64,000 nucleotides of DNA from a virus, in IMG/VR virus record IMGVR_UViG_3300031521_000027, positions 32,001 to 96,000 of that record; one strand, written 5' to 3'. Shown one piece after another: positions 18,588-54,956 of the stretch. The notes beneath the pieces were generated by a model. It searched no databases, was not told the origin of the DNA, and was given only the letters and a program-made list of their open reading frames with translations. Position numbers and translations under genes: made by a program. How positions within the stretch are numbered: the first letter of the stretch is position 1; every line of letters begins with the position of its first letter.

Positions 18588-18746
18588 GTGCCAGAGTCCT
18601 TGCTCGAACGCCTCCGCCCCATGTGGGCTGCTGCTGTATCGGCTTTTCTCTCTGACCCGTCGTATGCCATTGAGATGGCCACCGTCGGGAGCCAGCAGGC
18701 AGTAGTTGTCGCCCGTTCTGAGGACATGGAGTTCAGCGGCGTATAA
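18588..18746 (+). CDS. possible 52-aa leaderless ORF
   Basis: TACGAT -10-like hexamer 7 nt before GTG; atypical codon usage. Confidence 0.3.
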   Translation: MPESLLERLRPMWAAAVSAFLSDPSYAIEMATVGSQQAVVVARSEDMEFSGV

Positions 18747-18748
18747 GT
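18718..18748 (+). promoter_or_regulatory. putative middle promoter (CTGAG-N15-GGCGTATAAGT) for helicase-sigma operon
   Basis: Matches bipartite consensus seen at 8 other sites. Confidence 0.6.
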
Positions 18749-18767
18749 GGTCAGGAGGAATAATCCC

Positions 18768-20498
18768 TTGCCACTCAACTTTGACGTCCGGAACTTCACC
18801 GAAGCTCGCCGTGAGCAGCTCGCGTGGAGGATCCACCAGTCCGTGAACTGGAAGCTCCCGCCCCTGAAGGTGTGGAACTACGACCTGTGCCGCATCCATG
18901 CGCGCGGGTGGGTCGAGGAGATCCGTGACACCGACGGTGAGGTCAAGACCCACACCGTCTACGACCGGCCCAAGCCCGGCTGCCGGGACTGTGGGATCCA
19001 CTTCCGCAGGCACCAGCACATCGGGGTGGCGTGGCTCTATTTCAAGAAACACGCCCTGCTGGCTGACACCATGGGATCGGGCAAGACCACCGAGGCTGGC
19101 GGGCTGATCGCCATGCTGATCGAGACCGGGGAGCTGTCCCTCTTCCGTGACAGATCCAGCGCCCACGGTGGCAAGGGTCGAGTCATCATCGTGCCCCGGT
19201 CCCCCGCCCTCCACCAGTGGCGCACCGAGCTTCTCCGGATGATGCCCAGCCTGAACATCCTCGTCTCCGAAGGCACCCGCAAGCAGCGCACCCAGTTCTA
19301 CCTCCAGCCGTGGCAGGTCCTCCTGATCGGGCCTGAGATGCTGCGCAACGACTACCAGCTGCTGGAGAACTTCGACCTCTCCCTCTTCCTCACCGACGAC
19401 ATCGACGCCCTCCGCAACCCCACCACCGAGACCTCCTACGTGCTGGACCGGATGGGTGCCCGGGGGGTCGAGGGCCTGCGTCCCGGCACCGACCGCTACG
19501 TCATCATGACCGGCACCCCCCTCCAGAAGCGCCTGCCCGAGCTGCACGCGGTGCTGGACGGCATCGGGGGCACCCTCGCGCTGGGCAGCATGGACTCCTT
19601 CGTCCACCGCCACGTCCGCAAGGCCACCATCACCGAGTACGACCGGAAGTCAGGCAAGGACATCCGCAAGGAGGTCGTGGTCGGCTACCGGGACCTCGGT
19701 ACGGTCAAGGCCCGGATCGCCCCGCTCGTGCTCCGCCGCACCGCCGCCGACCTCGACGACGTCGACCTGCCCACGATCATCCCCAACGACGTCATGCTCG
19801 ACCTCTACCCCGTGCAGCGGGCCAAGTACACCGAGCTGCGCAAGGGCGTGCTGAAGATCATCCGCGAGGAGGGCACGCAGGTGAAGCGCCCCAACGCGCT
19901 GGCCAAGATCCACTACGGTGCGGCCATCTGTGCAGGGCTCGCCGCGCTTGGGGAAGAGGACGGCCCCGGGACCAGCGTCAAGCTCGACTGGGTGGTCAAC
20001 CAGCTCACCGAGGGTGGGCTCAGCGAGCGCGGCGAGAAGGTGGTCGTGTTCGCCAACCTGAAGAACACCGTCAGGGCCCTCCAGATCCGGCTCAAGGAGG
20101 AGGGTGTGGGCTTCGTCACGGTGTGGGGGCAGGAGAACGACAAGGTCAAGCGCGCAGCCTCACAGGAGCGGTTCTGGACCGACCCGAAGTGCAAGGTGCT
20201 GATCGGCACCAAGGCCATCGAGCAGTCCCTGAACCTTCAGGTCTCCCGGCACCTCGTCAACATTGACATGATCTTGAACCCAGCGAGAATGGAGCAGTTG
20301 GCCGGACGTATTCGCCGCGACGGCTCGGCCTTCCAGCACGTCTACGTGCACAACCTCCTGACCATCAATACGCAGGAGGAGAAGTACCTCCCCCTGCTGG
20401 AGCGTGAAGCAGCGCTGGCCGCGCACATCTGGGACGAGGATTCCCAGCTGTTCACTGCCCTCTCACCCTTGGCCCTTCTACAGCTCATTTCCGGATGA
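18768..20498 (+). CDS. SNF2-family helicase/ATPase
   Basis: LLADTMGSGKT, MTGTPLQ, VLRRT, MEQLAGRIRR; Walker B is atypical (DDID); TTG start after AGGAGG. Confidence 0.9.
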   Translation: MPLNFDVRNFTEARREQLAWRIHQSVNWKLPPLKVWNYDLCRIHARGWVEEIRDTDGEVKTHTVYDRPKPGCRDCGIHFRRHQHIGVAWLYFKKHALLADTMGSGKTTEAGGLIAMLIETGELSLFRDRSSAHGGKGRVIIVPRSPALHQWRTELLRMMPSLNILVSEGTRKQRTQFYLQPWQVLLIGPEMLRNDYQLLENFDLSLFLTDDIDALRNPTTETSYVLDRMGARGVEGLRPGTDRYVIMTGTPLQKRLPELHAVLDGIGGTLALGSMDSFVHRHVRKATITEYDRKSGKDIRKEVVVGYRDLGTVKARIAPLVLRRTAADLDDVDLPTIIPNDVMLDLYPVQRAKYTELRKGVLKIIREEGTQVKRPNALAKIHYGAAICAGLAALGEEDGPGTSVKLDWVVNQLTEGGLSERGEKVVVFANLKNTVRALQIRLKEEGVGFVTVWGQENDKVKRAASQERFWTDPKCKVLIGTKAIEQSLNLQVSRHLVNIDMILNPARMEQLAGRIRRDGSAFQHVYVHNLLTINTQEEKYLPLLEREAALAAHIWDEDSQLFTALSPLALLQLISG

Positions 20499-21241
20499 AA
20501 GCAGTGACAATGACCGCCGCCACCCCCGTCCCCCTCTCCGACTACCAGAGCGAGTTGGTCAGGACCCACGTGGGCCTTGCCCAGAGCATTGCAATGTCTT
20601 TCTGGAAACGAGCCGCATCGGAAGTGGACCGCGACGAGATCGTGGCCATCGCCTATCAGGGGCTGATCACCGCCGCCCAGAGGTACGAACCCAACATCGT
20701 CCCGGAGAACGACCCGGACGTGGCGCTGCCCCCTGTTGCACTGACGTTCGGCCAGTACGCCAAGCGCCGCATCGGGGGAGCCATTCAGGACTGGATGCGC
20801 CAGCTGGACCACGTCCCCCGCAGGCAGCGCACCATCTACAAGGACATGCAGGAGCTGGCCCCCGGCAGGAGCCCTGAGGAGACCGCAGAGATCCTCGGGA
20901 TCGACGTCAACCGGGTCCGTGCGATCACCCACGCAGTCGAGTGCCCCCCGGTCTCACTGGACGACATGGCAGGCGACAGCGACCGGGGCAACATGGCTCC
21001 CCCAGCTGAGGGAGGCACCGAGGGATCAGTCGCAGCCCACATGCTTCAGGAGGCCATGGTCGAGGTCATGGAGGGGATGCCGTCGTTCGAGAAGTCGGTC
21101 ATCGTCCTGCGGTACTACATGGGCATGAGCTTCCCCCAGATCGCCGCCGAGCTGGGCTCCAGCGTGTCCACCGTCAAGGTCACCCACCAGCAGCAGATCC
21201 TGCTGATCCACGCCGCCATGGTCCAGACTGCGCGCTCCTGA
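20495..21241 (+). CDS. phage sigma factor, FliA/WhiG (sigma-28)-like
   Basis: GLI.AA.RY.P, F..YAKRRI.GAI.DW.R..D.VPR, VSLDD, VI.LRYY..MSF.QIA.ELG. Confidence 0.9.
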   Translation: MKAVTMTAATPVPLSDYQSELVRTHVGLAQSIAMSFWKRAASEVDRDEIVAIAYQGLITAAQRYEPNIVPENDPDVALPPVALTFGQYAKRRIGGAIQDWMRQLDHVPRRQRTIYKDMQELAPGRSPEETAEILGIDVNRVRAITHAVECPPVSLDDMAGDSDRGNMAPPAEGGTEGSVAAHMLQEAMVEVMEGMPSFEKSVIVLRYYMGMSFPQIAAELGSSVSTVKVTHQQQILLIHAAMVQTARS

Positions 21242-21245
21242 TCAC

Positions 21246-21276
21246 CTGCGTCTGGGACCTCCTCAGGCGTACCAGT
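21246..21276 (+). promoter_or_regulatory. putative middle promoter CTGCG-N15-GGCGTACCAGT
   Basis: Consensus match upstream of the DnaB operon. Confidence 0.75.
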
Positions 21277-21298
21277 AAGTGAAGCCCGAAGGAGCCCC

Positions 21299-21493
21299 AT
21301 GACCGATCCGCAGTACGACCTGTCCCCCGACGATGCCGTCATCCAGATGCACGCCAACCTGACGGCCATGAAGGCGGACCCGAACCGGAAGCAGCTGACC
21401 GGCATGACTCCCGACGACGCCTTCGACCTCGGGTACGGCGCGTGCCTGCTCGACTACTCCGCCCTCACCGGGCCCAAGCCTGAAGAGAACTGA
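21299..21493 (+). CDS. hypothetical protein
   Basis: RBS AAGGAG; typical codon usage. Confidence 0.65.
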   Translation: MTDPQYDLSPDDAVIQMHANLTAMKADPNRKQLTGMTPDDAFDLGYGACLLDYSALTGPKPEEN

Positions 21494-21494
21494 C

Positions 21495-21746
21495 ATGGCT
21501 CACATCCCCAAGCCCTTCTCCCGTCCCAGCATCAGCCTCAACACCTCGGGCAGGCGCTGGGTCCAGACCCGCGCGTGGGACCTCGACACAGGGGACATCG
21601 TGCAGGACATGGGCATGGTCAAGGAGATCGAGAAGCACGTGACCACGACCAAGATCTCCTTCGCCTCCGGGCTGTCGTTCGTTTTCACAAACGACACCGT
21701 CATGCGCGCCTTCACGCTTGGAGAGTCCGTTGGCATCAGCCTCTGA
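21495..21746 (+). CDS. hypothetical protein
   Basis: Tightly packed ORF with typical codon usage. Confidence 0.65.
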   Translation: MAHIPKPFSRPSISLNTSGRRWVQTRAWDLDTGDIVQDMGMVKEIEKHVTTTKISFASGLSFVFTNDTVMRAFTLGESVGISL

Positions 21747-23199
21747 ACACTCCCAGATCGTCCTCTCGGCCATCTTGGCGGGCAGGCGCGATCTGCTGGA
21801 GAAGGCTGTCGCCCACCTGACGCCAGCCCACTTCCCGGAGAAGGTCCACGCCGACCTCTTCACCATGCTCATGCGCTTCTCGGACTACACCGGGGGCGCG
21901 GTCATGCCGCTGAAGTACCTCGACGACAACCTCCGTGGCCGCATGGAGCCGGGCAAGGCTCAGCTGTTCACCGAGACCTACGAGATGCTGTCGGAGACCA
22001 CGACAGAAGATTCTGAGTTCGCGTGGTCCCTCCAGCAGCTGCGCGAGCTGGCTGCCGACAAGACCACAGGCGAAGCCCTGACTGAGGCCATGGAGATCCT
22101 GCGCCGAGGCAAGACCATCGACAACCAGACCTATCAGGGCCACAACGATGCCCGCGCTCGCCTGCTGGAATCGTTTCAGGAAATCGACCGTGAGCTGGTT
22201 CGGCAGGACGCGCCGGAGGGGGACCTCGCAGACGAGGCCACCGAGATGAAGGCCGACTACGCCGAGCGGAAGAACGCGCGCCTCAAGGGTGTGTCCTCCG
22301 GCATCCGGTTCGGCATCGACGAGCTGGACCGCAAGATCGGTGGGCTCCAGCCGGGAGAGCTGGTGCTGCTCGCGGGCTACTCCAGCGACGGCAAGTCCTC
22401 CCTGTGCGTCCAGCTCGCGTGGAGCGCCGCCGTGGAGCAGGGACAGAACGTGGTCTTCCTGACCACCGAGACCCTGCGTCCCCAGATCCGCCGCAAGATC
22501 ATCGCCCGCCACTCCAAGCTGCCGATCTTCGAGACACCCGAGGGCCTTAACACCCGGGATCTGAAGGCAGGCACCTTGACGGATGAGCAGGAACTCATCC
22601 TCCCCCGGGTGATCGACGACCTCGCCAAGAACCCCGCCTACGGCAAGATCTACATCGCGCAGGTCCCTCGGGCGGCAGGCATCGCCAGCATCGAGCAGAG
22701 GCTGCTGCGGATCCAGCGGAAGTTCAACATCAAGCTGGTCATCGCCGACTACCTCGCGCTGCTGATCGCCGAGCGCAGACGCACCACGGCCCGGGAGGAG
22801 TACGCCGAGGTGCTGAAGAACGCCAAGCTCCTGTCGGTCGCCTTCGACAACGGGCGGGGAGTGGCCTTCGTGTCCCCGTGGCAGGTCTCCAGACAGCACA
22901 GGGAGGCCGCAGAGAACCTCGGGCAGTACACGTCCGCCGCGCTCTCCGAGACGGCTGAGGCGACGAACTCCTCCGACGTGATCGTCAGCCTGCTGGCCCC
23001 CACCGACAACACCGACCGGCACGCCGACGTCACCTTCCAGATCCTGAAGAACCGGGACGGCGAGACGGCCAACGGCATGATCGTCGAGGTCGACTACGCC
23101 ACCTGTCACTTCCGCAGCAAGCGGATGCTGGGAGCCCTCGGTACGGGTGGTCTCGACTACTCCACCAACGGCACCATGGAAAGCCTGCTGAGCGCCTGA
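21730..23199 (+). CDS. dnaB: DnaB-like replicative helicase
   Basis: LDRKIGGLQPGEL..LAGYSSDGKS, ADYL.L, KNRDG; start uncertain (21718 or 21730). Confidence 0.9.
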   Translation: MASASEHSQIVLSAILAGRRDLLEKAVAHLTPAHFPEKVHADLFTMLMRFSDYTGGAVMPLKYLDDNLRGRMEPGKAQLFTETYEMLSETTTEDSEFAWSLQQLRELAADKTTGEALTEAMEILRRGKTIDNQTYQGHNDARARLLESFQEIDRELVRQDAPEGDLADEATEMKADYAERKNARLKGVSSGIRFGIDELDRKIGGLQPGELVLLAGYSSDGKSSLCVQLAWSAAVEQGQNVVFLTTETLRPQIRRKIIARHSKLPIFETPEGLNTRDLKAGTLTDEQELILPRVIDDLAKNPAYGKIYIAQVPRAAGIASIEQRLLRIQRKFNIKLVIADYLALLIAERRRTTAREEYAEVLKNAKLLSVAFDNGRGVAFVSPWQVSRQHREAAENLGQYTSAALSETAEATNSSDVIVSLLAPTDNTDRHADVTFQILKNRDGETANGMIVEVDYATCHFRSKRMLGALGTGGLDYSTNGTMESLLSA

Positions 23200-23219
23200 G
23201 CTGAGGCGTATCAATAGGT

Positions 23220-23348
23220 ATGAGCGATTACGACGACGGCGAGGGAGGCCTTGAGGCCATCTTCTCGATTCTCTACGGCATGGTGTACCTCTTCATCGTG
23301 CTCCCACTCGCATGGCTGGCCAAGAAGATGGGACTACTGGATGACTGA
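23220..23348 (+). CDS. 42-aa membrane peptide, leaderless
   Basis: ATG 4 nt after GGCGTATCAAT (middle promoter 23185-23215); single hydrophobic helix; overlaps next start. Confidence 0.55.
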   Translation: MSDYDDGEGGLEAIFSILYGMVYLFIVLPLAWLAKKMGLLDD

Positions 23349-24570: not shown

Positions 24571-24619
24571 TTGCATATGTCACCCCTCAGGGCTATGGTC
24601 AGACACAGCTTCACTCCCG

Positions 24620-24649
24620 TTGCCACTACGCCTCATGGTCGGATATACT
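24620..24649 (+). promoter_or_regulatory. host sigma-A-type promoter TTGCCA-N18-TATACT upstream of ECF-like sigma gene
   Basis: Near-consensus hexamers; a second candidate TTGCAT-N17-TATGGT lies at 24571-24599. Confidence 0.6.
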
Positions 24650-24796
24650 TCGTCTTGCAGCTGGAGGGTTCACGCCCTTCACCTCCTGCCTAAGTTGACC
24701 GCTTAGCGAGTGACGGGCTCCCATTAAGGAGTCCGTCACTTGGCGTTTTACGAGAAACAAGCGGTCAACTTATCGGTCACCCCATGGAGGATTTCT

Positions 24797-25465
24797 GTGC
24801 CCAGTCTTACCGTTTCCCCCCGCACCATCACGCAGGCCGGAAGGCCCTCATCGTCGAGGTATCCGGACTTCGTCCCAGCCAACTACACCGAGCTGTTCGA
24901 CCACTACTACCCTTACGTCCGGGGCATCGTCTTCAAGTCCGGCATCGACTCCCAGAGCTGTGCGGACGTGACCATGTCCATCCTTGAGAAGTTCTTCGCC
25001 CACGACGTGCTGGCCGACTTCAACCCCGAGTTCACCTCCACCCATGGTGGGGTCACCCGCAAGGCCATGTTCCGGACCTTCCTGTCCGGCTTCGTCAAGA
25101 TCTACGTCCGGCACCACCGGGACCGCCAGATCATCACCAAGGCTCGCGAGGCCATCTCGCTCGACGCACCAGCCGGTGACGACAACACGTGGATGGACTA
25201 CTACGGGGAGACCCACGTCGACACCTACGATCAGCTGATGATCGAGGATGCCGTCCTCACCGTGCAGGACCACCTTGCCACCCTCTCCGACCCCCGGGGC
25301 CGCTGCGAGATGCTGGACCTGTTCAACATGACCTTGGAGCACTCGGTCACCTACGGCAGCCCCAACGTTGAAATCCTGTCCCAGTACTTCGAGGTCTCCG
25401 AGACCACGATCCGGAACCGGCTGAAGGCCCTGCGCGCCGAGATCCATGAGGTCTTCGAGTCATGA
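24797..25465 (+). CDS. phage sigma factor, ECF-like
   Basis: ELF..YYPYV..IV, D.T.....KF, FRTFL region 2; SLDAP; C-terminal HTH LSQYFEVSETTIRNRL; GTG after GGAGG. Confidence 0.7.
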   Translation: MPSLTVSPRTITQAGRPSSSRYPDFVPANYTELFDHYYPYVRGIVFKSGIDSQSCADVTMSILEKFFAHDVLADFNPEFTSTHGGVTRKAMFRTFLSGFVKIYVRHHRDRQIITKAREAISLDAPAGDDNTWMDYYGETHVDTYDQLMIEDAVLTVQDHLATLSDPRGRCEMLDLFNMTLEHSVTYGSPNVEILSQYFEVSETTIRNRLKALRAEIHEVFES

Positions 25466-26990: not shown

Positions 26991-27986
26991 ATCGCCACCT
27001 TCAGTGGCTGGCTGACCGGGACCAAGAAGACCCCTGAGCCCCGGCAGATCACGTGGGTGTGCGGGCCGGAGGTCGTGCTTGTGGAGGAGGTCGTCCGGAG
27101 CGTCTCGGAGTTCCTCGCCCCCGAGCCGTGGAACCGGGTCAGCCTCGTGGCCGGAGATGATTCTGAGCGGGACATCTGGGCCGCGCTGGACCAGCACCCG
27201 ATGGACACCTCACCCCGGCTGGTGATCGTCCGGCACGTCGAGAAGATCCATGAGTGGGACCGCTTCGTGCAGTGGGTCAAGGACCGCTCGCGCAACCCCC
27301 GGACCTACGTGGTCATGGTCTCCTCCGAGGCGGCTGTTCCGAAGACCGAGCCCACCCCGGAGGAGCGCAGACACGGTACCCGCCCGGAGCCCCTCCCGCA
27401 CATAGCCTGTATCGGATCCAAGGGCCACGTGGTGGAGTGCAAGCCGTTCACCTCGGCCACCGCGCTGCGCTCCGTGGAGTGGGTCCAGTCGAAGGCCCCC
27501 ATGCGGGACGGCATCGCCCGGCACCTGCTCACCCGCTCGAACTGGAACCTGCGGCTGGTCCGCGACATCTGCCTGAAGCTCGCCGTGTTCCCCGGTGAGA
27601 TCACCATCTCAGTGGTCAACACCCTGCTGGCCGAGCAGCCCCGGGACAGCTTCACCGACGCCCTGCTGGCGCTGGACCGCAAGACCGCACTGCTCGCCGC
27701 CGAGTCGATCCCTCGCGAGGAGGTCGGGCGCATCATCGGCCTGCTGGACGCGAAGCTCGACAAGGCTGGGATGATCCATGACATGCAGGTGGACCACAAG
27801 TCACCCGGCGACATGGCCAAGGCTCTGGGTCCGCAGGCGTTCCTGCTCACCGAGCTGATGAACGTCTCCAAGCACTACAACGCCAAGCGCAGGCTCGCGA
27901 TCCGCAGGACGCTGGCCGTGGTCGACGAGGCCTACCGCTCCGGGCAGACAACGGGTCTGCTCGAAGTTGTCGTGGCGTTCTGGTGA
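26991..27986 (+). CDS. clamp-loader delta-like (HolA) protein; probable ATC start
   Basis: W.CGPE.VLVEE, RLVIVR.VEK, helical C-terminus; GGAGG 6 nt before ATC GCC ACC. Confidence 0.65.
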   Translation: MATFSGWLTGTKKTPEPRQITWVCGPEVVLVEEVVRSVSEFLAPEPWNRVSLVAGDDSERDIWAALDQHPMDTSPRLVIVRHVEKIHEWDRFVQWVKDRSRNPRTYVVMVSSEAAVPKTEPTPEERRHGTRPEPLPHIACIGSKGHVVECKPFTSATALRSVEWVQSKAPMRDGIARHLLTRSNWNLRLVRDICLKLAVFPGEITISVVNTLLAEQPRDSFTDALLALDRKTALLAAESIPREEVGRIIGLLDAKLDKAGMIHDMQVDHKSPGDMAKALGPQAFLLTELMNVSKHYNAKRRLAIRRTLAVVDEAYRSGQTTGLLEVVVAFW

Positions 27987-28031
27987 GGCGTACCAGTAAG
28001 TGGAGCACCCCGCAGATCAAGGAGAACTGAC

Positions 28032-28223
28032 ATGGACTGGGCAACGTACTGGATCCTGCTGGCGCAGGCAGGCATCGCTCTCGTAGCGCTGGCCGTGCCG
28101 CTGTCGTTCGCCATCGCGGTGGCAGGAGCAGGTGTCAAGGCAGCCATGAAGAGTGCGGGCTCAGCTGAGGTCCCGCAGGCTCCCCTGACCCAGAACACCT
28201 ACACCTTCCCGCCGACCAAGTGA
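28032..28223 (+). CDS. small membrane protein
   Basis: RBS; hydrophobic N-terminus; follows middle-type -10 at 27987-27997. Confidence 0.6.
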   Translation: MDWATYWILLAQAGIALVALAVPLSFAIAVAGAGVKAAMKSAGSAEVPQAPLTQNTYTFPPTK

Positions 28224-31339: not shown

Positions 31340-31370
31340 CTGCGGATTGTCAGTGCTGATCCGTACCATT
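31340..31370 (+). promoter_or_regulatory. putative middle promoter CTGCG-N15-TCCGTACCATT
   Basis: Consensus match upstream of SSB-RuvC-RecA. Confidence 0.65.
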
Positions 31371-31427: not shown

Positions 31428-32552
31428 ATGCCCAGAGTCACATTCGAGGAAGAGAACAGGGTTGCAGTCACGAACTACGACTACCCGAAGCTCAAGCTCA
31501 AGAACGGGGAGCGCGCCCGCATCCTCGTTGGTCTGGAGAACCCCGTCATGGAGTTCGTCCACACCCTCCGCAAGCCGCAGATCATCAACGGCGTCGTGCA
31601 GATGGAGACCAAGGAGCGCAAGGACAAGTCCACGTTCGAGGACTACAAGACCGACTTCATCACCAAGGCGATCTGCATGGGCGACGCCACCATCCTCGGC
31701 GAGAAGGGCAGCGACCCCAAGAACTGCCCGATGTGCAAGCTGGCCAAGGACTTCCCCGACTACGCGCAGGAGCCGCAGCGCCGCTACGCCATGCACGTGA
31801 TCCGCTACCGCACCAAGGCCGGGACCACCACGCTCCAGACGCCGTACTCGGTCGAGGTCCTCGTGTGGGGCTTCGCCGACAAGGTGTTCAACAAGCTGAT
31901 CGACGCCAAGAAGGAGTGGACCGACCTGCGCAAGCACGACCTGCTCCTCGGCCCGTGCTCCAGCGAGAACTTCCAGCAGTTCGACATCGCCGTCGCGGCG
32001 AACGCCGAGTGGCTGGGCGACAAGGAGCGTCAGACCATGACGGCGCTCTCCTTCCGCGAGAACCAGATCCCCGATCTGACCATCGCCTGCGGTTCGCCGA
32101 AGCAGCTCCAGTGGGTCCAGCAGGACATCGCCGCCGTCATGGAGGCGTGGAATCAGGTCAAGGGTGTGGCTGCTCAGGCTGCATCCACCGAGGGTCTGGA
32201 AGACGACCTCAACGGCCTGCTGGATGGCATCGGCGGCGTTGGCATCAGCGACGACGAGGTCAACCTCGACACGGGGGAGATGCTCGATGAGCTGCCCGAC
32301 GTGCTGACCGACGACCTGCTCGCAGGCATCGGCGACGACCCGGCTGAGGAGCCGGTCGAAGAGCCCGCTGAGGAGCTGGCTGAGGAAGCCACCGAGGAAA
32401 CCTCCGACGACCTCCTTGCGGGGCTGGAGGAGACCAAGGTGGCAGAGCCGGTCAAGAAGGCCCCCGCCAAGGCTGCAACCAAGGCCCCTGCCAAGGCTGC
32501 TGCCGAGCCCGCCGTCGACAACTTCGACGACCTGCTCGCTGGTCTGGTGTGA
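31428..32552 (+). CDS. single-stranded DNA-binding protein (gp32-like)
   Basis: LKLK.GE..RI, CPMC, long acidic tail ending FDDLLAGLV. Confidence 0.75.
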   Translation: MPRVTFEEENRVAVTNYDYPKLKLKNGERARILVGLENPVMEFVHTLRKPQIINGVVQMETKERKDKSTFEDYKTDFITKAICMGDATILGEKGSDPKNCPMCKLAKDFPDYAQEPQRRYAMHVIRYRTKAGTTTLQTPYSVEVLVWGFADKVFNKLIDAKKEWTDLRKHDLLLGPCSSENFQQFDIAVAANAEWLGDKERQTMTALSFRENQIPDLTIACGSPKQLQWVQQDIAAVMEAWNQVKGVAAQAASTEGLEDDLNGLLDGIGGVGISDDEVNLDTGEMLDELPDVLTDDLLAGIGDDPAEEPVEEPAEELAEEATEETSDDLLAGLEETKVAEPVKKAPAKAATKAPAKAAAEPAVDNFDDLLAGLV

Positions 32553-33157: not shown

Positions 33158-34423
33158 ATGGCTGTCGCAAAACCGAAGGTCTCCGGCCTCGCCCTCCTGC
33201 TGGCCCAGTCCGAGAAGAAGTACAACCTCGCGGTGGGCACGCTGGACTCCATCGCCACGGACACCGTGTTCATCTCCACCGGGAACATCGCCATCAACCA
33301 CGCCATCGGTGGCGGCGTCCCCATGGGGCGCACGGTGGAGTTCTACGGGCCTCCCAGCTCGGGCAAGACAACACTGGGCATCCAGACCGCTGTGGAGATG
33401 CAGCGGGTCATCCTGAGCGGCGGAGACCCCTCCCGTGGGATCGGCCCGGACGACTCGATCATCTACCTCGACTACGAGCAGGCCTTCGACGCCGGGTACG
33501 CCCATGCGCTGGGGCTCGACACCAGCCACAAGTCCTTCCTCTTCGGCCAGCCCGACATGCTGGAGGAGGGCGCGGACTTCCTGATGGAGGCGTTCAAGAC
33601 CGGTGAGGTCCGGCTGGCCATCGTCGACTCCGTCGCGGCCATGACCCCCTCCGCGCAGGCTGAGGCCGACTCGGTGGGCAAGTCCCTCCCGGCGGTGCAG
33701 GCCAAGCTGATGAAGGTGTTCGGCACCAACCTGAACGCCGTGCTGAAGAACAACAACGGCACGGTCATCTTCATCAACCACGAGATCGAGACCATGGAGA
33801 TGGGTGGCAACCGTCGGCCCGGGATGCCCGCCCCCACCTCCACCCCGGGGGGCAAGGCGCTGAAGTTCTTCGCCAGCGTCCGGCTCCAGTTCCGCCAGAT
33901 CCGCAACGTCAAGGGCAAGATGATCGACGCCCTCACCAAGCAGGAGATCGAGATCCCGGTGGCCACCGACGTCAAGGTCAAGGTGGTCAAGAACAAGGTC
34001 GCTCCGCCGTTCCGGGAGTGCATCGTGCGGGTCCGCTTCGGCAGGGGCTTCGACGACTTCTGGACCGCCATGCAGATCCTGCTGGCCAACAAGAAGATCA
34101 TCTACGCCAACGGCAGGTACTACTTCCACAACCTGATCGAGGAGATCCCCGCCGAGTGGATGGGCCGGGAGACCACCGGGACCAAGCGCCCCTACCTCCA
34201 CGGGGAGGCTCGGGTCTTCTCCAGCGCCGACGCCCACACCGAGTGGAGGACCGCGATGATCGACCTCGCCAAGGTGGTCGCACTGGAGAACGTGGCCTCA
34301 CTTGCGTCCGTGGCCAAGTTGGGCGTACCAGAGAGTGAGGACGATGACGAAGATGGCATCGACGGCGCTGAGCTGGACGAGCTGGTCGGGGCCTCAACGG
34401 CAGGCAACAGGATCGACATCTAG
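33158..34423 (+). CDS. recA: RecA-like recombinase
   Basis: ISTG, GGGVPMGR.VEFYGPPSSGKTT, IVDSVAAM, PGGKALKF, KNKVAPPF. Confidence 0.95.
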   Translation: MAVAKPKVSGLALLLAQSEKKYNLAVGTLDSIATDTVFISTGNIAINHAIGGGVPMGRTVEFYGPPSSGKTTLGIQTAVEMQRVILSGGDPSRGIGPDDSIIYLDYEQAFDAGYAHALGLDTSHKSFLFGQPDMLEEGADFLMEAFKTGEVRLAIVDSVAAMTPSAQAEADSVGKSLPAVQAKLMKVFGTNLNAVLKNNNGTVIFINHEIETMEMGGNRRPGMPAPTSTPGGKALKFFASVRLQFRQIRNVKGKMIDALTKQEIEIPVATDVKVKVVKNKVAPPFRECIVRVRFGRGFDDFWTAMQILLANKKIIYANGRYYFHNLIEEIPAEWMGRETTGTKRPYLHGEARVFSSADAHTEWRTAMIDLAKVVALENVASLASVAKLGVPESEDDDEDGIDGAELDELVGASTAGNRIDI

Positions 34424-36398: not shown

Positions 36399-36410
36399 AA
36401 ATCATCACGG

Positions 36411-36420
36411 GCCGATCTTC
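36411..36420 (+). promoter_or_regulatory. putative late promoter GCCGATCTTC
   Basis: Repeated 10-mer upstream of lysis-related membrane gene. Confidence 0.65.
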
Positions 36421-36454
36421 TGAGGTGGGAAAGCACATTCAGGAGGGGTCCAAC

Positions 36455-36994
36455 TTGTCCAACATCCCGCAGTGGTTGGCGGACATAACTGTCGGTCAGA
36501 TCTTTGTTGTTCTGGTCGGGATCGGGGCCATCGTGGCTGCGTGGAGGTTCGTTTCCCCGTTGGCTGTGGGACTCAAGCATTTCTTCGAGGACTGGAACGG
36601 AGAGCCTGACCGGAAGGGTGTCGATGGGCGTCCCGGGGTCATGGCCACCCTCAAGGATCACGGCGACGAGATCATCAAGAACACCGCCAAGCTGGAAGCC
36701 ATCGAGTCGCAGGTGACCCCGAACCATGGCTCCGAACTGAAGCTCGCAGAAGAGCTACAGAACCTCCGCAAGGAGGTCGCCACTCTCAATGAAGGAGTGG
36801 CCAAAACACAGGTCGATGTCGCCTCTCTTACTTCCGGGATGAAGGAAACTCAGGGGGCCTTGAACGAGCACTTGGAGAACGTCCCGGTGATCTTGGCCGA
36901 CCTGCTGGAGAAGGCCAGCGACAACGCCGCCGAGATGATCGTCACTGCTCGGGCAGGTCACCTCCAGCCCACTCTCTTCGAGGATCACCGCTGA
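36455..36994 (+). CDS. membrane-anchored coiled-coil lysis accessory protein
   Basis: N-terminal TM, DW.GEP.R.GV..RPGVM, PNHGS motif of actinophage holin-adjacent proteins. Confidence 0.7.
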   Translation: MSNIPQWLADITVGQIFVVLVGIGAIVAAWRFVSPLAVGLKHFFEDWNGEPDRKGVDGRPGVMATLKDHGDEIIKNTAKLEAIESQVTPNHGSELKLAEELQNLRKEVATLNEGVAKTQVDVASLTSGMKETQGALNEHLENVPVILADLLEKASDNAAEMIVTARAGHLQPTLFEDHR

Positions 36995-37044
36995 GTCGAT
37001 CTTCATGGGTGTGAAGGACTGACCACGTACAAGAAGAGGACCCA

Positions 37045-37602: not shown

Positions 37603-37646
37603 AGAACCGCCCCCGCCCTCGTATGAGGCTGTTCGGGGGCGGTTCT
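37603..37646. terminator. hairpin AGAACCGCCCCCG...CGGGGGCGGTTCT
   Basis: 13-bp stem after holin. Confidence 0.6.
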
Positions 37647-37679
37647 GCGTAATGCACCAAGAGAGGCGTACCAGTGAGT

Positions 37680-39111: not shown

Positions 39112-39133
39112 AGCTAGGTCGATCTTCTATGGC

Positions 39134-39274
39134 ATGTCCATAGACCCTGCACTGAGTCCCGAGCTTGAGCCGGTCGAAGAGATCGAAGACGAAGAGATCT
39201 CCGACGAGGAACTCGAAGCCAACCAGCCGCCTGCCGACCCCTCCATCGAGGGCACCGACGGGATGCCGGAATGA
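39134..39274 (+). CDS. 46-aa highly acidic leaderless peptide coupled to endolysin
   Basis: GTCGATCTTC (39118-39127)-N6-ATG; stop overlaps endolysin ATG. Confidence 0.6.
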   Translation: MSIDPALSPELEPVEEIEDEEISDEELEANQPPADPSIEGTDGMPE

Positions 39275-40632
39275 TCCTCCTCGCGGACGCACAGGCCTTC
39301 TGCCTGCGGCTCGACAAGGTCGCCAACATCGGCTACGACCAAGGCGAACGGTGGGACTTCTACCGCAACGGCAAGCTCGTGCTCGGAGCCACCGAGGGTG
39401 ACTGCTCGACCGTGTGTGGAGCCATCGCCAAGGAGGCCGGTATCCCGGTCGTCCTGTCCGGCACGTTCTACACCGGCAACTACGCCATCAAGATGAAGGC
39501 CGCTGGCTGCAAGGTCATCCGGTTCGAGTCGATGTCGCAGGTCAAGGTCGGCGACTTCCTCCTGACCCCGGGCCATCACGTCGAGTTCGTCTACAGCGAG
39601 ACCAAGATGTTCTCGGCCCATCAGGACGAGCGTGGCCGCGCATCCGGTGGCAAGGCTGGAGACCAGACGGGCAAGGAGGTCGGCTTCAGGACCTTGGCGA
39701 ACCGCCCCGGTGGCTGGACCTACATCATCCGCCCGCAGTACACCACCGTCACCAAGCCGGTGCCTGTCGTGGTCCCCGGCATCGTCATCACCGAGGCCCA
39801 GCTGGCTGCCGCACTCAAGGCTGCCGGTTCGAGCACCGTCCGCGCGAAGGTCTGCACCGGGTACAACGCCAAGGGTGAGCGGGTCTACACCGCCACCTCG
39901 CTGAAGGACCTCGCGGCCATGGCCACTGTGGCGCTGAAGGGTCAGAAGCTGACCCGTCACGGCGTCGCTGCGTGGGTCGGCACGATGCTTCAGGAGTCTG
40001 CATGGCTGGCCACGACCGTCGAGTACGGCGCGGACAAGAAGCGCTACGACCCCTACCGGGGCCGGTCGTTCGAGCAGATCACGTGGAAGGACAACTACGC
40101 GGCGTTCGGGGTCTGGGCCAAGAGCCGGGGTCTCATCACCGACGCCAACCTGTTCGTCGACCACCCGGATGAACTCGGCAAGCTCGGGTGGGCGTGGGTC
40201 GGAGGCATCTGGTACTTCTCAGCGCGCAAGCTGTGGGGCTACGGCAACTCCGGCGACTTCCAGAGGGTCCAGACCGCCGTCAACATGGGCACCGCCTCCG
40301 GCGAGAAGTACCCGGCTGGCTGGGACGCTCGACTGTCGGCCTACCGGGCGTTCCTGTCGGCCTACGGCAAGCCCGCCGCACTCGCGGTGGACGGTGACTT
40401 CGGCACCAAGTCGTGGAAGCGGGTGCAGGAGTTCCTCGGGGTCGAGATCGATGGCCAGACCGGGGGCCAGACCTACCGCGCGCTCCGCAAGTGGCTCGGC
40501 TACAGCGACGGTGACGTCCTGAACTCCGGTGTCATCGGAGCGTTGCAGTCCAAGATCGGTGTGTCCAAGGACGGCGACTGGGGTCCCAAGACCTCGACTG
40601 CTTTCCAGAAGTACCTGAACGCTCATCGGTAG
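39271..40632 (+). CDS. endolysin: NlpC/P60-like amidase + GH19 + peptidoglycan-binding repeats
   Basis: GYDQ..R...GDCS...GHHVE; LQES...EY...YRGR..QITWKDNY; VDG.FG..T repeats. Confidence 0.9.
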   Translation: MILLADAQAFCLRLDKVANIGYDQGERWDFYRNGKLVLGATEGDCSTVCGAIAKEAGIPVVLSGTFYTGNYAIKMKAAGCKVIRFESMSQVKVGDFLLTPGHHVEFVYSETKMFSAHQDERGRASGGKAGDQTGKEVGFRTLANRPGGWTYIIRPQYTTVTKPVPVVVPGIVITEAQLAAALKAAGSSTVRAKVCTGYNAKGERVYTATSLKDLAAMATVALKGQKLTRHGVAAWVGTMLQESAWLATTVEYGADKKRYDPYRGRSFEQITWKDNYAAFGVWAKSRGLITDANLFVDHPDELGKLGWAWVGGIWYFSARKLWGYGNSGDFQRVQTAVNMGTASGEKYPAGWDARLSAYRAFLSAYGKPAALAVDGDFGTKSWKRVQEFLGVEIDGQTGGQTYRALRKWLGYSDGDVLNSGVIGALQSKIGVSKDGDWGPKTSTAFQKYLNAHR

Positions 40633-40658: not shown

Positions 40659-40700
40659 AGCCCTGACTCCCCTAATCCCCCCCGTAGGGGAGTCAGGGCT
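40659..40700. terminator. bidirectional terminator AGCCCTGACTCCCCT...AGGGGAGTCAGGGCT
   Basis: 15-bp perfect stem between convergent genes. Confidence 0.75.
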
Positions 40701-40842
40701 TAGCTGCGCCTACGAGGAGCGGGGCTGTGTCCCATTCCCACAGTCGGTCGGACCAGTAGGCCTGATGGGAGCCGGGGTGGCCTGCCTTCTGGTGGCAGAC
40801 GAGCGTCCATCCACAGGCGGGGGTTCCTTCGTGGTTGCACAT
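40693..40842 (-). CDS. 49-aa Cys/His-rich leaderless protein
   Basis: Minus-strand GTCGATCTTC (40858-40849)-N6-ATG; C...C....GH...H...W.W pattern also seen in 54783-54956. Confidence 0.6.
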   Translation of the reverse strand: MCNHEGTPACGWTLVCHQKAGHPGSHQAYWSDRLWEWDTAPLLVGAAKP

Positions 40843-40892
40843 GTCTCTGAAGATCGACTGCGGATCCCCGGTTCTGCGGCGTACCAGTAGGT

Positions 40893-43179: not shown

Positions 43180-43353
43180 GGCACGAGTGGGCCGGGCACC
43201 GTCACGTACCTGACGGTGGGAAGGTGGAGACGTCCACCGAGTTGGTTGATCCCCGGGAGCGAGAGGTGGTACCTCGCACTTAGCTTGACTTGGGACATCT
43301 CCATGGCCTAAGCTAGAGACATCAAGCGGTCAGCTTGCACAACAGGAGGAACC

Positions 43354-50894: not shown

Positions 50895-51002
50895 TTCTGA
50901 GGGGCCCCATCGTGTTTCTCGAAAATGCGATTCGGCCCCTCACTCAGATTCCGAAAATAGCTGTGCACTCACCCCGGCAAACGTGTGTGTAGACTCCCCC
51001 AC

Positions 51003-51293
51003 ATGTCTTTCTCAAAACAACCGCAGCGCGTCTCCATCGCCATGGTCATGCAATCCCTCCGCGAGCAGGCAGAGACCGTCACCGACGCCCGTAACGCCCT
51101 CACTGACGCCATTGCGGACCGGGACGCCATGATGGTCGAGCTGAAGGCCGCAGGGGTCCCTGAACGCAACATCATGAAACTCACCGGACTCAGCAGGGAC
51201 TCCGTCGCCCGGATCACACAGGGAGCCCGTACCGCCGCCGCACTGGACGCAGAGGCACTCCTCGCCATCCCTGCACCCGGCAAGCTGCGCTAG
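51003..51293 (+). CDS. HTH DNA-binding protein, leaderless
   Basis: GVPERNIMKLTGLSRDSVARI; TAGACT -10 at 50990; three TTTC-NN-GAAA-like sites around start. Confidence 0.7.
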   Translation: MSFSKQPQRVSIAMVMQSLREQAETVTDARNALTDAIADRDAMMVELKAAGVPERNIMKLTGLSRDSVARITQGARTAAALDAEALLAIPAPGKLR

Positions 51294-51319
51294 AGCCTCC
51301 CAGCGGCGTACCAGTAGCT

Positions 51320-52405
51320 ATGGCAGCAACCATCCACCGCCTCCGGGTCCGCAACTTCCAGAGCCTGCACGACATCGAGCTGGAGCTTCTCCCGTTCACC
51401 GTGATCGTCGGGCCCTCCTCCTCGGGCAAGTCGGCACTCACCCGGGCCCTGCGCACCCTCGTGTCCAACAGGCGGGGTACCGAGTGGATCACCCACGGGG
51501 AGCGGACGGCATCCATCACCGCAGAGACCGACGCAGGCACGGTCACACTCACCCGCAGCCGCTCCTCCGCATCGTCGGACAACGCGTACACCCTGACGCC
51601 CGCAGACAACCCGGAAGCCCAGCGGACCTACGCCAAGCTCGGTGGCGACACCCCGGAGGACGTTTCGAGATTCCTCGGCATCAACTCCGGCACCACGGCC
51701 ACCCCGCCGATCAACTTCGCAGGCCAGTTCGACAAGCCGTTCCTCCTCGCCGACTCCACCGCCGACGTCGCCCGCACACTGGGGGCCCTCACGAACGTCA
51801 ACATCATCTTCGAGGGAGCCCGGGAGTCCAACAGGCAGAAGCTGGCCAACGCGGTCACCCTGCGCACCAGAGCAGCAGACCTTGAAGCGGTCAAGGCACG
51901 GGTCCCCGAGTTCCGAGCCCTGAAGGCACAGGACGTGGCCCTCACCGCAGCCGAGCAGATCATCGAGCACGCCCGCCAGCTGGAGCGCCAGATCGCCCGG
52001 CTCTCACAGGCACTGGACATCGTCACCGTGATCGAGCCGTCCCTGCCACGCCTCCAGCGCCTCGCAGACATCGTGGTCCCTGACGAAACATCGATCCTCC
52101 GGGCCCAGAGCGCCCTCTCCAGCTTCCAGCAGGCTCTCACCCGGATACCGACCCTCGCCCGAGCCCAGCAGGCCGCACAGCAGGCGTACGACGTCATCGA
52201 CACACAGGAGGCCAAGCTCCTCGCCGACTATGCCGAGTTCACCGGGGAGATCACCGACTCCCTGCACGGGTGGATCGGGGGCATGACCCTGAGGGGGGAC
52301 ACCCGGATCGAGTTCTCCGAGACCGGCATCGAGGTCGAGTGGATTCAGACCGACGTGGCCGTGAGTCTCTTCCTGAAGTATCTCGAAACGAAGGCCAGTT
52401 CGTGA
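51320..52405 (+). CDS. SbcC/Rad50-like ATPase, N-terminal half only
   Basis: RNFQS, VIVGPSSSGKSA..RAL, NF.GQFD.PFLL, coiled coil; no signature or Walker B; middle promoter 51285-51315. Confidence 0.8.
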   Translation: MAATIHRLRVRNFQSLHDIELELLPFTVIVGPSSSGKSALTRALRTLVSNRRGTEWITHGERTASITAETDAGTVTLTRSRSSASSDNAYTLTPADNPEAQRTYAKLGGDTPEDVSRFLGINSGTTATPPINFAGQFDKPFLLADSTADVARTLGALTNVNIIFEGARESNRQKLANAVTLRTRAADLEAVKARVPEFRALKAQDVALTAAEQIIEHARQLERQIARLSQALDIVTVIEPSLPRLQRLADIVVPDETSILRAQSALSSFQQALTRIPTLARAQQAAQQAYDVIDTQEAKLLADYAEFTGEITDSLHGWIGGMTLRGDTRIEFSETGIEVEWIQTDVAVSLFLKYLETKASS

Positions 52406-52683
52406 CCGGCTTCTCCCTCCCCGCGTGGACCGGTCGCTCCGCGCCCCCACCGGGAGAAGATTCTGAGCGGGCCCTCTCCCTCACCGACGCGTGGGCTGCA
52501 CTGGTCCGCATCCGCAACAGGTCCATGACCCAGACGGAGCTGGCCGAACGTGCGGGGCTGCACCGCTCAGCCGTATCAAAGATGGAGGCCGTCGGTTATC
52601 TTCCGACCCTGCGCACCATGGCCACCTATGCCGACGCCCTCGACATCGAGCTGAACCTCACTTTACGAAAGAAGGCTTCATGA
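52402..52683 (+). CDS. XRE-family HTH regulator
   Basis: MTQTELAERAGLHRSAVSKME...PTLRT. Confidence 0.85.
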   Translation: MTGFSLPAWTGRSAPPPGEDSERALSLTDAWAALVRIRNRSMTQTELAERAGLHRSAVSKMEAVGYLPTLRTMATYADALDIELNLTLRKKAS

Positions 52684-54956
52684 TCACGCCCCGCAGGTTC
52701 CTCATCCGCTCCCGGGACAACCTCGCCCAGATCCTCGCCGAGGGAGTCGTGTGGTCCAACGGCGGGGTCAGCACCGTCCGCCACCCGTGCCGCTGGTTCA
52801 AGGACTCCCGTGGGCTCGCCCTCGCGCTGCCCGAGGAGCTGGGACTCCCGACCCCACAGAACCTCGCCCAGCTGGAGAACCTCGCCGCAGCCGTGTGGGG
52901 AGAGCTGGACTGGCTCGACAAGTCCGAGGAGGAGATCGCCGCAGCAGCTGCACAGGCGCAGGCCAAGATCGACGAGGCATGGCGGGATGCGCAGGTGGAC
53001 ATGCACAAGATCCTCTTCGCCGCCCGGAAGCTCGACTGGCGGGACCCGGTCGCCGTCGCACAGGAGCAGCGCACTTCCCGTGGCCTCGACGAGGTTTCAG
53101 GAAACGAGCCCGCCCCCGAGGAAGATTCTGAGCTGCCCTTCGTCGGCTACCGGGTGGCACAGGCCGCTCCCGGTGACTTCCTCATCTCCGGTGACTTCTC
53201 CGCGCAGCAGGCAGCGCAGGACGAGGAGGACATCGACACCCTCAAGAGCTGGTGGCCCCACCGGACCTTGACCGTCCACATCCCTGAGCCCAGCAGGCTT
53301 CTCTCGACGCTGCTGCTGGGCCATGACCCGTGGGCCGAGGTCATCGTCGGCAAGGACACCACCATCAACGGGATGCTCGGCGACCTCGTATTTCGTCCGT
53401 ACGGGCCCAGCAGCTCCGAACCCGTACCAGTACCCGCAGAAGGTGCTGCTGAGCCCGTGGACCCCCCACAGGGCCCCGCTGAGCAGCCGATCCAGTCGTG
53501 AGGGTCGCGATCACCGAGGCAGATCTTGTCTCCCTCGCTCCCGACAGCGTCATCCTGCTCACCTCGTGGGGTAGTTACTCGAAACGAACCGACGGCTTCT
53601 GGCAGCGCGCGGGTGGACTCCCGCTGAGTTCCCGGCACATGGCCTCGGGCAAGCCCCTGCTGGTCATCTTCGACGCGGGCCGGATGGAACAGACCATTCG
53701 GGTACTGGAGGCCGACGCCCTGTGCACCCTCCAGCTCTCGGGTGGGGAAGCCCTGCACGCACTGGCCGAGATCGACTTCGTGAACTGCTGGCGCAAGCAT
53801 CATCCGAGGGTGGAAGATTCTGAGCGCCCCCCTGCGCAGCCGACCGGCTGAGGCGTACCAGTGAGTGGGGGAGATCATGGCCGAGTTGTTCCTGACTGGT
53901 GCAGCTTCTGTGGCTCTCTTCTGCTTGACCATCACCGGCATCCGCTACGCAGTGAGGAAGATCCGTGTCCGACGTTTCCAATAACGAGCCCGACGAACTC
54001 CGTGGCAGCAGGCGTCTCTCGCCGCACGGCACCATCGCCGCAGTCCGCAGGCATCACCGTCACCACGAGCAGCTCTGTGAGCCCTGTGCGGTCGTCTCCA
54101 AGGCTGACCGGGCCAAGCGGTACCGGGAGGACCACGAGAAGTCCAAGAGCGCCATCGAGACCGCGCGCCGCACCGCCAAGGCCCGTGCCTACCGCATCCT
54201 CGCCGAACGGCACTACGTCGAGTGGATCGACTTGCTCGACGACACCACCGCCGAGGAGCTGGAGTCCAAGGGACTGACCGGGTGAGCGACTTCGAGCAGC
54301 CCGTCTTCGGGGACTACGACCAGTTCGTCACCTTCGCTGACGACCGGGTGATCGCCACCTACCAGCTGCCTGTTGAGCCCGATCCTGAGCTTCCCGTGGC
54401 CAAGCCCAAGAGCCCGTACCAGCAGGCCCTGTCACTGGCCAACAGCGTGCTCCCACACCCCCTCGACGACGATCAGGCGACTGCTCTCGCAGCGGTGTAC
54501 GCACAGCTGGCAATAGCCGACAGGCTCGAACGGGTGGAGACTGGAATCCTGAAGTCTCTCGCAAGTCCCCTTCCGGGTGACACGGGAGACGTGGAGGGCG
54601 GGCCTTGATGGGCACAGACGAGCTTTCGACGTACATGACGCGCCTGCGGATCAGGCTCAACCGGGCGAACATCCCCGAGCGGTACTTCATGGAGCGGGGT
54701 CACCCGTGGATCAACACCCCGAAGGGCAGAATCCTGCGCCCTTCGCTCGGCCACGCCTTCCATGGCACCGGGGTCTGACCCTGTGACGTCCGCCCTTGTC
54801 CCCGAGCCCACTGAACGCTGCGCAGTCCCCCGCAGTGCAGGCAGCGTCGTGGTGTGTGAGCTGGCCCACGGACACGGGCCTGACATCCCCGGTGAAGCCC
54901 GGGTGCACCGAGGCCGGGACAAGGGTGGGCACTGGCACGACTGGCCGTCGCAGTGA
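52680..54956 (+). CDS. hypothetical genes (52680-53501, 53498-53851, 53877-53984, 53965-54285, 54282-54608, 54608-54778, 54783-54956)
   Basis: Coupled ORFs; middle promoter 53832-53862; HGT...H....C.PC Zn motif in 53965. Confidence 0.55.

Follow-up and report, generated by a model that had tools for sequence, protein, structure and literature searches.

The window analysed here is a stretch of 64,000 nucleotides (bases 32001-96000) of the 104,213-bp IMG/VR viral contig IMGVR_UViG_3300031521_000027, and it encodes two candidate sigma factors of different kinds together with three families of repeated, promoter-like motifs. Coordinates are those of the window; negative numbers and numbers above 64,000 lie outside it. 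The contig is about 84% complete by CheckV estimate, has 64% G+C and carries nearly all of its genes on the plus strand. It represents an uncultured high-GC phage whose closest isolate by protein is Microbacterium phage Magritte, a 133-kb singleton (OR553905) cultured on M. foliorum. Magritte was reached by protein-level search only: a megablast of 8 kb against GenBank phages found no DNA-level similarity. We compared this contig (G000) with Magritte and with the relatives G001, G002, G003, G004, G005, G006, G007, G008 and G009. G001 is collinear with it at 72-90% nucleotide identity; G007, picked from contigs that carry the FliA-like sigma gene described below, is 123.8 kb long and 99% complete, and G005 and G008 are 74% and 51% complete, respectively.

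The first sigma gene, at 20495-21241 on the plus strand, encodes a 248-residue FliA/WhiG-like group-3 protein with Pfam Sigma70_r2 and r4_2 domains, and is the proposed reader of the late promoter class. Its best curated model is TIGR02479 (FliA_WhiG), matched from residue 21 to 240 and over profile positions 1-221 of 224 with 77.4 bits, a score far below that model's cut-off of 189.6 bits; a phmmer comparison with A. aeolicus FliA gave E = 4.7e-9. The predicted structure (mean predicted local distance difference test, pLDDT, 79.6) folds into three helical blocks, and its nearest folds are B. subtilis SigD, sigma-28 and WhiG. As modeled, the protein has the sigma-2/-3/-4 layout, the length of about 240 residues and the lack of region 1.1 that characterize group-3 sigma factors.

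The second gene, at 24797-25465 on the plus strand, starts with GTG behind a GGAGGA and encodes a two-domain protein of 222 residues, the proposed reader of the middle promoter class, which resembles extracytoplasmic function (ECF) sigma factors. Its match to TIGR02937 (sigma70-ECF) spans the full length and is weak (16.9 bits, E = 0.0038). Among 5.8 billion proteins we found 13 relatives of this protein; TIGR02937 is matched by 12 of the 13 family members, with E values no higher than 0.05 and a best of 2.9e-7, and r4_2 by three. The family alignment contains conserved blocks EDVAMTIL and FRTFLSGFV..Y.RH..DRQ and a C-terminal helix-turn-helix, which we take, by comparison with ECF consensus sequences, to be regions 2.2, 2.3-2.4 and 4.2. 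An AlphaFold2 model (pLDDT 74) places helices at residues 30-118 and 140-221 around a low-confidence linker (121-128), and fits a group-4 layout of sigma-2 plus sigma-4 with a short linker and neither region 1.1 nor sigma-3. The best 50 Foldseek matches to this model are essentially all sigma factors, ECF proteins first; one match is to a chain from an RNA-guided transcription complex. The two halves of the model can be aligned, in the right order, with sigma-E, SigK, AlgU, SigL and SigH, and the N-terminal domain superposes on ECF sigma-2 domains, including those of SigC, SigW and SigK, at 2.2-2.6 Å. Because the domain order, the all-sigma match list and the profile matches agree, we regard the assignment of this product as an ECF-type sigma factor as reasonably secure, on the strength of the model and the profiles taken together. 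Two other comparisons were too weak to use alone: the family profile found only generic helix-turn-helix matches among PDB sequences, and a single-sequence phmmer search reached RpoE at E = 0.27. No anti-sigma partner was seen (no search aimed at one was made), and the genes downstream are clamp-loader-like.

The earlier note had described these two sigma factors as dissimilar, and this is borne out: an hhalign comparison of the two families gave a probability of 5%, with no meaningful similarity beyond the last helix-turn-helix. Both have homologues in Magritte, the one relative in culture (OR553905, gene 47 for the FliA-like and gene 60 for the ECF-like protein), which GenBank labels only as ‘DNA binding protein’, and the Magritte genome note is silent on sigma factors and on promoters (PMC11663251). 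All three promoter classes described below are common to Magritte and this phage.

The ECF-like gene lies behind tandem host sigma-A-type promoters on the plus strand (24571-24649). The downstream one, TTGCCA-N18-TATACT at 24620-24649, had been noted before and was recovered by our promoter scan; a second, TTGCAT-N17-TATGGT, lies at 24571-24599. Both are kept in G001, as TTGCAT-N17-TAGGGT and TTGCGA-N18-TACACT. Given this arrangement, we propose that the ECF-like sigma is made early. Between the promoters and the gene lies a structured 5' leader (24656-24796, plus strand), in which an outer 13-bp stem (AAGTTGACCGCTT / AAGCGGTCAACTT) surrounds a 15-bp hairpin that has a T-rich run after it; folding of 24656-24800 gave a minimum free energy of -70.5 kcal/mol (z = -7.8). 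The layout GTTGACC ... hairpin ... GGTCAAC is also seen in G001, G002 and Magritte, although the inner hairpin has another sequence there, which suggests an attenuator or operator controlling synthesis of the sigma factor. The word GGTCAAC is also found after several early promoters.

The FliA-like gene sits in an operon with an SNF2-type helicase gene (18747-20498, plus strand; Pfam SNF2-rel_dom and Helicase_C), whose stop overlaps the sigma start. Just before the helicase start, a middle-class variant promoter, CTGAG-N15-GGCGTATAAGT, occupies 18718-18748 on the plus strand and heads the operon, as the earlier note had it. The site is conserved: GGCGTATAA or GGCGTACAA stands directly before the helicase at the syntenic place in G001, G002, G003, G006, G009 and Magritte, so that a middle-class site heads this operon in all two-sigma relatives.

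The middle class was originally described as CTGCG-N15-GGCGTAYCART with six full copies. Five of these are exact in the window (beginning at 21246, 37645, 40858, 51285 and 53832), where 100 shuffles gave 0.00 expected, and the sixth, at 31340, turned out to be a variant with three mismatches. When up to three mismatches are allowed, the pattern has 12 matches against 1.86 expected, with 11 of the 12 on the plus strand. Over the whole 104-kb contig, GGCGTAYCART occurs ten times on the plus (gene) strand and never on the minus strand, and the middle core is found 12 times on plus and once on minus against 1.34 expected (100 Markov simulations, here and for the other two classes). Alignment of 15 sites on CGTA yields the consensus yTGcG-N15-(ctga)GGCGTAYCAGTrrGT, with CGTA invariant and yTGcG in the -35 position at 15 of 15 sites. 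The 15-bp spacer had been called invariant, and the register confirms it: an upstream TG stands at the same register in all 12 of the sites chosen by GGCGTAYMA alone and in none of six chance matches in G007. Moreover, an unguided 9-mer screen based on fourth-order Markov expectation and strand counts placed words of three families near the top (CGTACCAGT 10/0, GGCCGATCT 9/1 and TAGAGACAT 10/0 on plus/minus).

At six middle sites the C of CGTA is followed at exactly 13 nt by an ATG, and the interval contains no Shine-Dalgarno sequence. Four of these ATGs lie in the window, at 23220, 37680, 40893 and 51320, in line with the four leaderless copies reported previously, and two more lie outside it at -25648 and 65698; all six open reading frames (ORFs) so begun have high third-position G+C. 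The remaining sites lie 30-66 nt upstream of genes with their own GGAGG-type ribosome-binding site. On the plus strand, the exact site at 21246-21276 leads to genes at 21299 and 21495 and a DnaB-like helicase gene at 21718, and the site at 23185-23215 (one mismatch) leads to the ATG at 23220. A variant with TTGTC at -35 occupies 27967-27997, before a gene at 28032 and a family A DNA polymerase gene at 28220; the position 27987 given for it earlier marks only the start of its -10 part. The variant at 31340-31370, TCCGTACCATT, precedes a gene at 31428. Missing from the earlier list were the site at 34302-34332 (two mismatches), which falls in the 3'-terminal part of the RecA gene, upstream of a gene at 34517, and a weak site at 52550. 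The exact site at 37645-37675 directly follows a terminator-like hairpin, as some other copies do, and leads to the ATG at 37680. Further exact copies lie at 40858-40888 (ATG 40893), 51285-51315 (ATG 51320, opening an SbcC-like exonuclease gene) and 53832-53862 (ATG 53877). Outside the window are four more copies (C of CGTA at -30873, -26175, -25661 and 65685). Middle sites also precede an SbcD-like nuclease gene (judged by its N-terminal sequence) and, at the left contig end, an ATPase/clamp-loader pair. Two ORFs directly behind middle promoters, 23220-23348 and 53877-53984, are called leaderless and encode small membrane peptides of 42 and 35 residues with hydrophobic cores; synonymous-type changes in G001 suggest that the 42-residue ORF is translated.

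The early class comprises host sigma-A-type promoters of the form TTGACA-N17/18-TA(A/T)(G/A)(A/C)T followed by AGAGACAT(G), spread over 43285-63648 on both strands. Plus-strand sites start at 43285, 43907, 45479, 46458, 48043, 49007, 57658, 59251, 61472, 62296, 63004 and 63620, and minus-strand sites at 56446 and 55817. Between 38 and 58 kb we found ten where 1.4 are expected, and genome-wide there are 17 on plus and 2 on minus against 0.52 expected. Most copies fall in a small-gene region at 43-68 kb, and leaderless starts are frequent among them. A palindrome, TTTC-NN-GAAA(c)AG, abuts the -35 box of most early promoters on its upstream side (for example at 43890, 45460, 48025, 48990, 59235, 61455, 62280, 62985 and 63600); judged from this position, it may be an operator that shuts off early transcription.

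The late class, aGGCCGATCTTCagaGG (word GGCCGATCTTC; in short form GCCGATCT), occurs nine times on the gene strand and never on the opposite strand, with 0.14 expected. The sigma-28/sigma-D/WhiG -10 box is GCCGATAA/T. The CGAT of the late sites lies at -20862, -14442, -7659, -4810, -1463, 2970, 13575, 36413, 36997 and 39120, and the sites precede a small gene ahead of terminase and portal, a gene for a 2096-residue protein and a protease or scaffold gene, and others follow the major capsid gene, lie among the tail genes or stand ahead of the endolysin gene. Within the window, all on the plus strand, these are AGGCCGATCTTCAGAGGT at 2966-2983, 67 nt before a tail-region gene at 3037; the variant TTGGCGATCTTCAGAGTC at 13571-13588, inside the gene at 12898-13812 and upstream of a gene for 1570 residues at 13812; a site at 36409-36426, whose C of CGAT is 12 nt from a GTG start at 36425; the variant GTCGATCTTC at 36993-37010, before a gene at 37045; and the variant GGTCGATCTTC at 39116-39133, ahead of the endolysin gene (39271-40632). 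From genome to genome the late motif differs in its 3' half but retains the CGAT core, with GCCGAT in most. GCCGAT or GYCGAT marks the late class of five genomes (this contig, G001, G002, Magritte and G007): the motif is GGCCGATCTTC here and in G001, GGCCGATATCAC in G002 and CCGATAGTAC in G007, and the word GGCCGATCTTC is not enriched in the distant relatives G002, G003, G004 and Magritte. In Magritte, G(C/T)CGATATCCCTG has ten exact copies on plus and none on minus, mostly in the structural module; the words GGCCGATAT in G002 (7/0 on plus/minus) and CCGATAGTA in G007 (7/1) are similarly polar.

One small ORF runs the other way. Located on the minus strand at 40693-40842 (region 40693-40856), it encodes 49 Cys/His-rich residues with 82% protein conservation in G001, has a leaderless start preceded on its own strand by a late-like GTCGATCTTCAGAGAC, and terminates at a bidirectional hairpin; on this sequence evidence it would be a rare antisense late gene.

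The claim of three promoter classes thus stands, each class being strand-specific and far above chance, and the classes follow gene function. Early promoters precede small genes and the ECF-like sigma gene; middle promoters precede replication and recombination genes, as the earlier note had said of most copies, and the helicase/FliA-like operon; late promoters precede packaging, head, tail and lysis genes.

Comparison with the relatives links each motif to one of the sigma genes. G001 holds middle sites at syntenic positions even where the flanks have indels: at 40880 it reads TTGTG-N15-GGCGTATCA and at 23207 GGCGTATCA, with the flanks diverged or carrying indels. Every relative with an ECF-like gene shows strand-biased GGCGTAYMA, with gene-strand/other-strand counts of 7/0 in G001, 15/3 in G002, 10/2 in G003 and 15/0 in Magritte, against 0-1 for controls; among the sites listed for the subset GGCGTAT[AC]A, the counts are 6/1 in G006 and 7/0 in G009. 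In G007, an unfiltered search at E up to 10 found no ECF-like homologue, and the FliA-like gene is the only sigma-like gene. There GGCGTAYMA shows neither strand bias (6/4) nor an upstream TG, while the FliA-like sigma and CCGAT-type motifs are retained. G005 and G008 also have neither the ECF-like gene nor the middle motif; since both are incomplete, the argument from absence rests mainly on the pair of G003 and G007. Overall, these data pair the middle motif with the ECF-like sigma and GCCGAT with its FliA-like counterpart, as far as co-occurrence can indicate. They lend comparative support to an assignment that was first offered as inference, through the GCCGAT core shared by five genomes and the joint absence of ECF-like gene and motif in G007.

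G003, which has the ECF-like gene and the motif, is the sister of G007 in a tree of the FliA-like protein (support 87/75). The two genomes are collinear, and G007 has no ECF-like gene in the slot between conserved neighbors; the former sigma slot holds TTGACG-N17-TATAGT instead. Before a conserved gene where G003 has GGCGTATAA, G007 has a sigma-A-type TACACT box and a leaderless ATG. Where the ECF-like gene is lacking, an extended -10 box, TGnTAnnnT, and a short leaderless ORF stand ahead of the helicase/sigma operon and no middle motif intervenes; genomes with the gene have the same layout plus a GGCGTAT(A/C)A site just before the helicase. We also considered a cluster of ATACTGCGATGGTACAC in G007 as a replacement middle motif and rejected it, as on the other strand these are sigma-A-type early promoters.

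From these observations we consider it probable that a three-step relay, host sigma-A to ECF-like sigma to FliA-like sigma, times the genes of this phage. In the first step, host sigma-A holoenzyme would read about 20 strong TTGACA-N17/18-TAnnnT promoters in the small-gene region and also the tandem promoters ahead of 24797, yielding the ECF-like sigma. This factor would then steer the host core polymerase to about 15 yTGcG-N15-GGCGTAYCAGTrrGT promoters, with transcription predicted to start about 13 nt after the C of CGTA, in six cases at the A of a leaderless ATG. Its targets would be helicases, DnaB, PolA, the gene after RecA, SbcC/SbcD-like nucleases and an ATPase with a clamp loader, as well as the operon ending in the FliA-like sigma gene. 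Finally, the three-domain FliA-like sigma would read about ten -10-only promoters, aGGCCGATCTTCagaGG with a GCCGAT core, ahead of the packaging, head, tail and endolysin genes. We infer from sequence that the motifs are promoters, and likewise their start sites, their timing and which sigma factor recognizes which motif.

Several observations weigh against this model. The ECF-like protein has no Pfam or PHROG sigma match, and its 16.9 bits lie below the TIGR02937 cut-off of 42.9 and below every curated sigma threshold. The superposition of its N-terminal domain on E. coli sigma-E region 2 scores Z = 9.2 (root-mean-square deviation 2.6 Å over 82 residues, 20% identity), and Z of about 9 is, according to the structure-comparison tool, an ambiguous range for helical proteins that is not decisive alone. 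An AAC-containing -35 is the hallmark of ECF promoters, and CGTA is the -10 box of B. subtilis sigma-W; the middle -35, yTGcG, has no such AAC, and the long -10 region (about 15 nt conserved) is more like that of a group-3 promoter. Ten aligned late sites carry no information content upstream of the core, with no -35 such as TAAA. Ahead of the helicase/sigma operon, a candidate sigma-A extended -10 box, TGATACGAT, lies at 18572-18580, about 140 nt upstream of the 18718 site, and a promoter scan also found TTGACA-N16-GAGAAT at 20263 inside the helicase gene, where such TTGACA-type matches are no commoner than by chance. From either, the FliA-like sigma could be made independently of its ECF-like counterpart, and the TGATACGAT box could render the relay less strictly serial. 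Lastly, the absence test rests mainly on one complete genome, G007, and the node joining it to G003 has moderate support. The TGATACGAT box also precedes a conserved ORF of 41 residues (18621-18746; motif DPSYAIEMA) upstream of the operon, and relatives carry TGnTAnnnT and a leaderless version of this ORF at the equivalent of 18572-18746.

Host sigma-A, perhaps with a phage activator, might instead read the middle motif, the ECF-like protein then being a DNA-binding regulator or appropriator rather than a sigma factor. Read as yTGnnn-N18-TAYCAG, the middle motif does have the 18-bp spacing of the early promoters, and the Magritte site before the helicase is TTGTTC-N18-TATAAC; the helix-turn-helix that is all Pfam gives for the ECF-like protein, and the GenBank name of its Magritte homologue, would suit such a role. 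However, no site has T where a sigma-A box would have its invariant -7 base: the base is G or A at 12 of 12 sites here (T in 0/12) and C or G at 15 of 15 in G002 (T in 0/15). The GGCG just upstream is nearly invariant and is not a sigma-A feature, the N-terminal domain fits ECF sigma-2 domains at 2.2-2.6 Å, and where the ECF-like protein is missing the motif is missing too, with sigma-A-type boxes in its stead. We therefore judge a sigma-A reading of the middle class unlikely.

It is less likely again, and in our view improbable, that the two specificities are swapped, with the FliA-like sigma reading GGCGTAYCA and the ECF-like sigma reading GGCCGATCTTC. The geometry of the middle motif, a short -35 word, N15 and an 8-mer starting G(G/C)CG, resembles that of sigma-28 promoters, and a long -10 region would suit a sigma factor with a sigma-3 domain. 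G007 speaks against the swap, for it has the FliA-like sigma and CCGAT motifs but neither the ECF-like gene nor the GGCGTAYMA motif; in addition, GCCGAT is a sigma-28 core and the ECF-like gene stands behind sigma-A-type promoters. Moreover, because a middle-class site lies ahead of the FliA-like gene, a swap would leave that gene in need of another trigger.

Slightly less credible still is the view that the motifs are RNA- or translation-level signals, such as the start-associated sequences of Cluster K mycobacteriophages or RNA-processing sites: motifs do lie at a fixed short distance from start codons, and conserved start-linked motifs of unknown role are known in actinophage clusters (PMC7302621), but each middle site consists of two parts at a constant 15-bp spacing, some copies stand 30-66 nt upstream of genes with their own ribosome-binding site or directly after terminator-like hairpins, motif presence tracks that of the sigma gene, and the late core is the known sigma-28 -10 box.

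If the ECF-like sigma does read the middle class, the two together might form a removable middle tier that was gained or lost within one phage lineage. Since the collinear sisters G003 and G007 differ in both the ECF-like gene and the promoters at the same sites, we regard this idea as close to balanced, with the scales tipping slightly against it. If true, the lineage would have switched between a two-step and a three-step programme by way of one factor and a dozen promoters, and would offer a natural example of a regulatory tier gained or lost.

Separately from the three classes, a polar word, GA(A/T)GATTCTGAG, occurs 19 times on plus and once on minus in the whole contig against 0.3 expected, lying within and between genes (for example at 22009, 27159, 42139, 46166, 50893, 52459, 53124, 53816, 54966, 57180, 58626, 60019, 61419 and 62565); it was not found in the first 50 kb of Magritte. 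We rejected GATTCTGAG as an orphan -35 of the middle class because nothing is conserved 15 nt downstream of it.

Phage sigma cascades are a textbook case of timed gene expression, and those worked out so far belong to a few phages of Firmicutes and enterobacteria. Bacillus phage SPO1 passes from host sigma-A to gp28 and then to gp33/gp34, with three temporal promoter classes; host-type promoters yield its first sigma, and the promoters read by that sigma yield the next specificity factor (PMC13401047). The relay proposed here would follow the same logic. Here too the putative first sigma gene, the ECF-like one, stands behind tandem sigma-A-type promoters (24571-24649). Unlike SPO1, the present phage would use two sigma subfamilies, a two-domain ECF-like and a three-domain sigma-28-like factor, in a high-GC actinobacterial host, with many would-be leaderless transcripts and a late factor that is apparently a single protein and not a pair. 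In phiEco32 and phage 7-11, a divergent phage sigma (gp36-type) likewise redirects the host core to middle and late promoters (PMC8948821). Those phages differ in having one phage sigma and no second tier, and their proteins show no detectable sequence relationship to the proteins here.

The promoters themselves also have relatives. Those of sigma-28, SigD and WhiG (TAAA-N15-GCCGATAA) share the GCCGAT core with the late class, and the GCCGATAT of Magritte equals the SigD -10 box; the late class differs in having no TAAA -35 and a phage-specific 3' half (CTTCAGAGG here, ATCCCTG in Magritte). The sigma-W promoter (TGAAAC-N16-CGTA) resembles the middle class in that a short word precedes a CGTA core by about 17 nt and in that the candidate sigma has two domains, but the middle class has yTGcG rather than AAC at -35 and a -10 region of about 15 nt. 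Microbacterium phages of clusters EC and EI are lytic, encode a sigma factor and have a repeated motif that stands in one orientation ahead of genes and whose function is stated to be unknown (PMC7302621). That motif is a different one (TAGaCTATaGGTgTaAgC), the sigma is the only one in these phages, and the two were not connected with each other.

Our literature search found no sigma cascade described for phages of Actinobacteria. Relative to the SPO1-type logic, what appears new here, as read from the sequence, is the use of sigma factors from two subfamilies, a -10-only late class with a sigma-28 core, widespread leaderless starts, an actinobacterial host and the apparent gain or loss of a tier. 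The case presents a complete wiring diagram that can be read from sequence, with two putative orthogonal pairs of sigma factor and promoter. If the relay holds, these pairs could supply orthogonal expression parts for high-GC Gram-positive bacteria, and the ECF-like protein would represent a very divergent sigma family that standard domain searches have overlooked.

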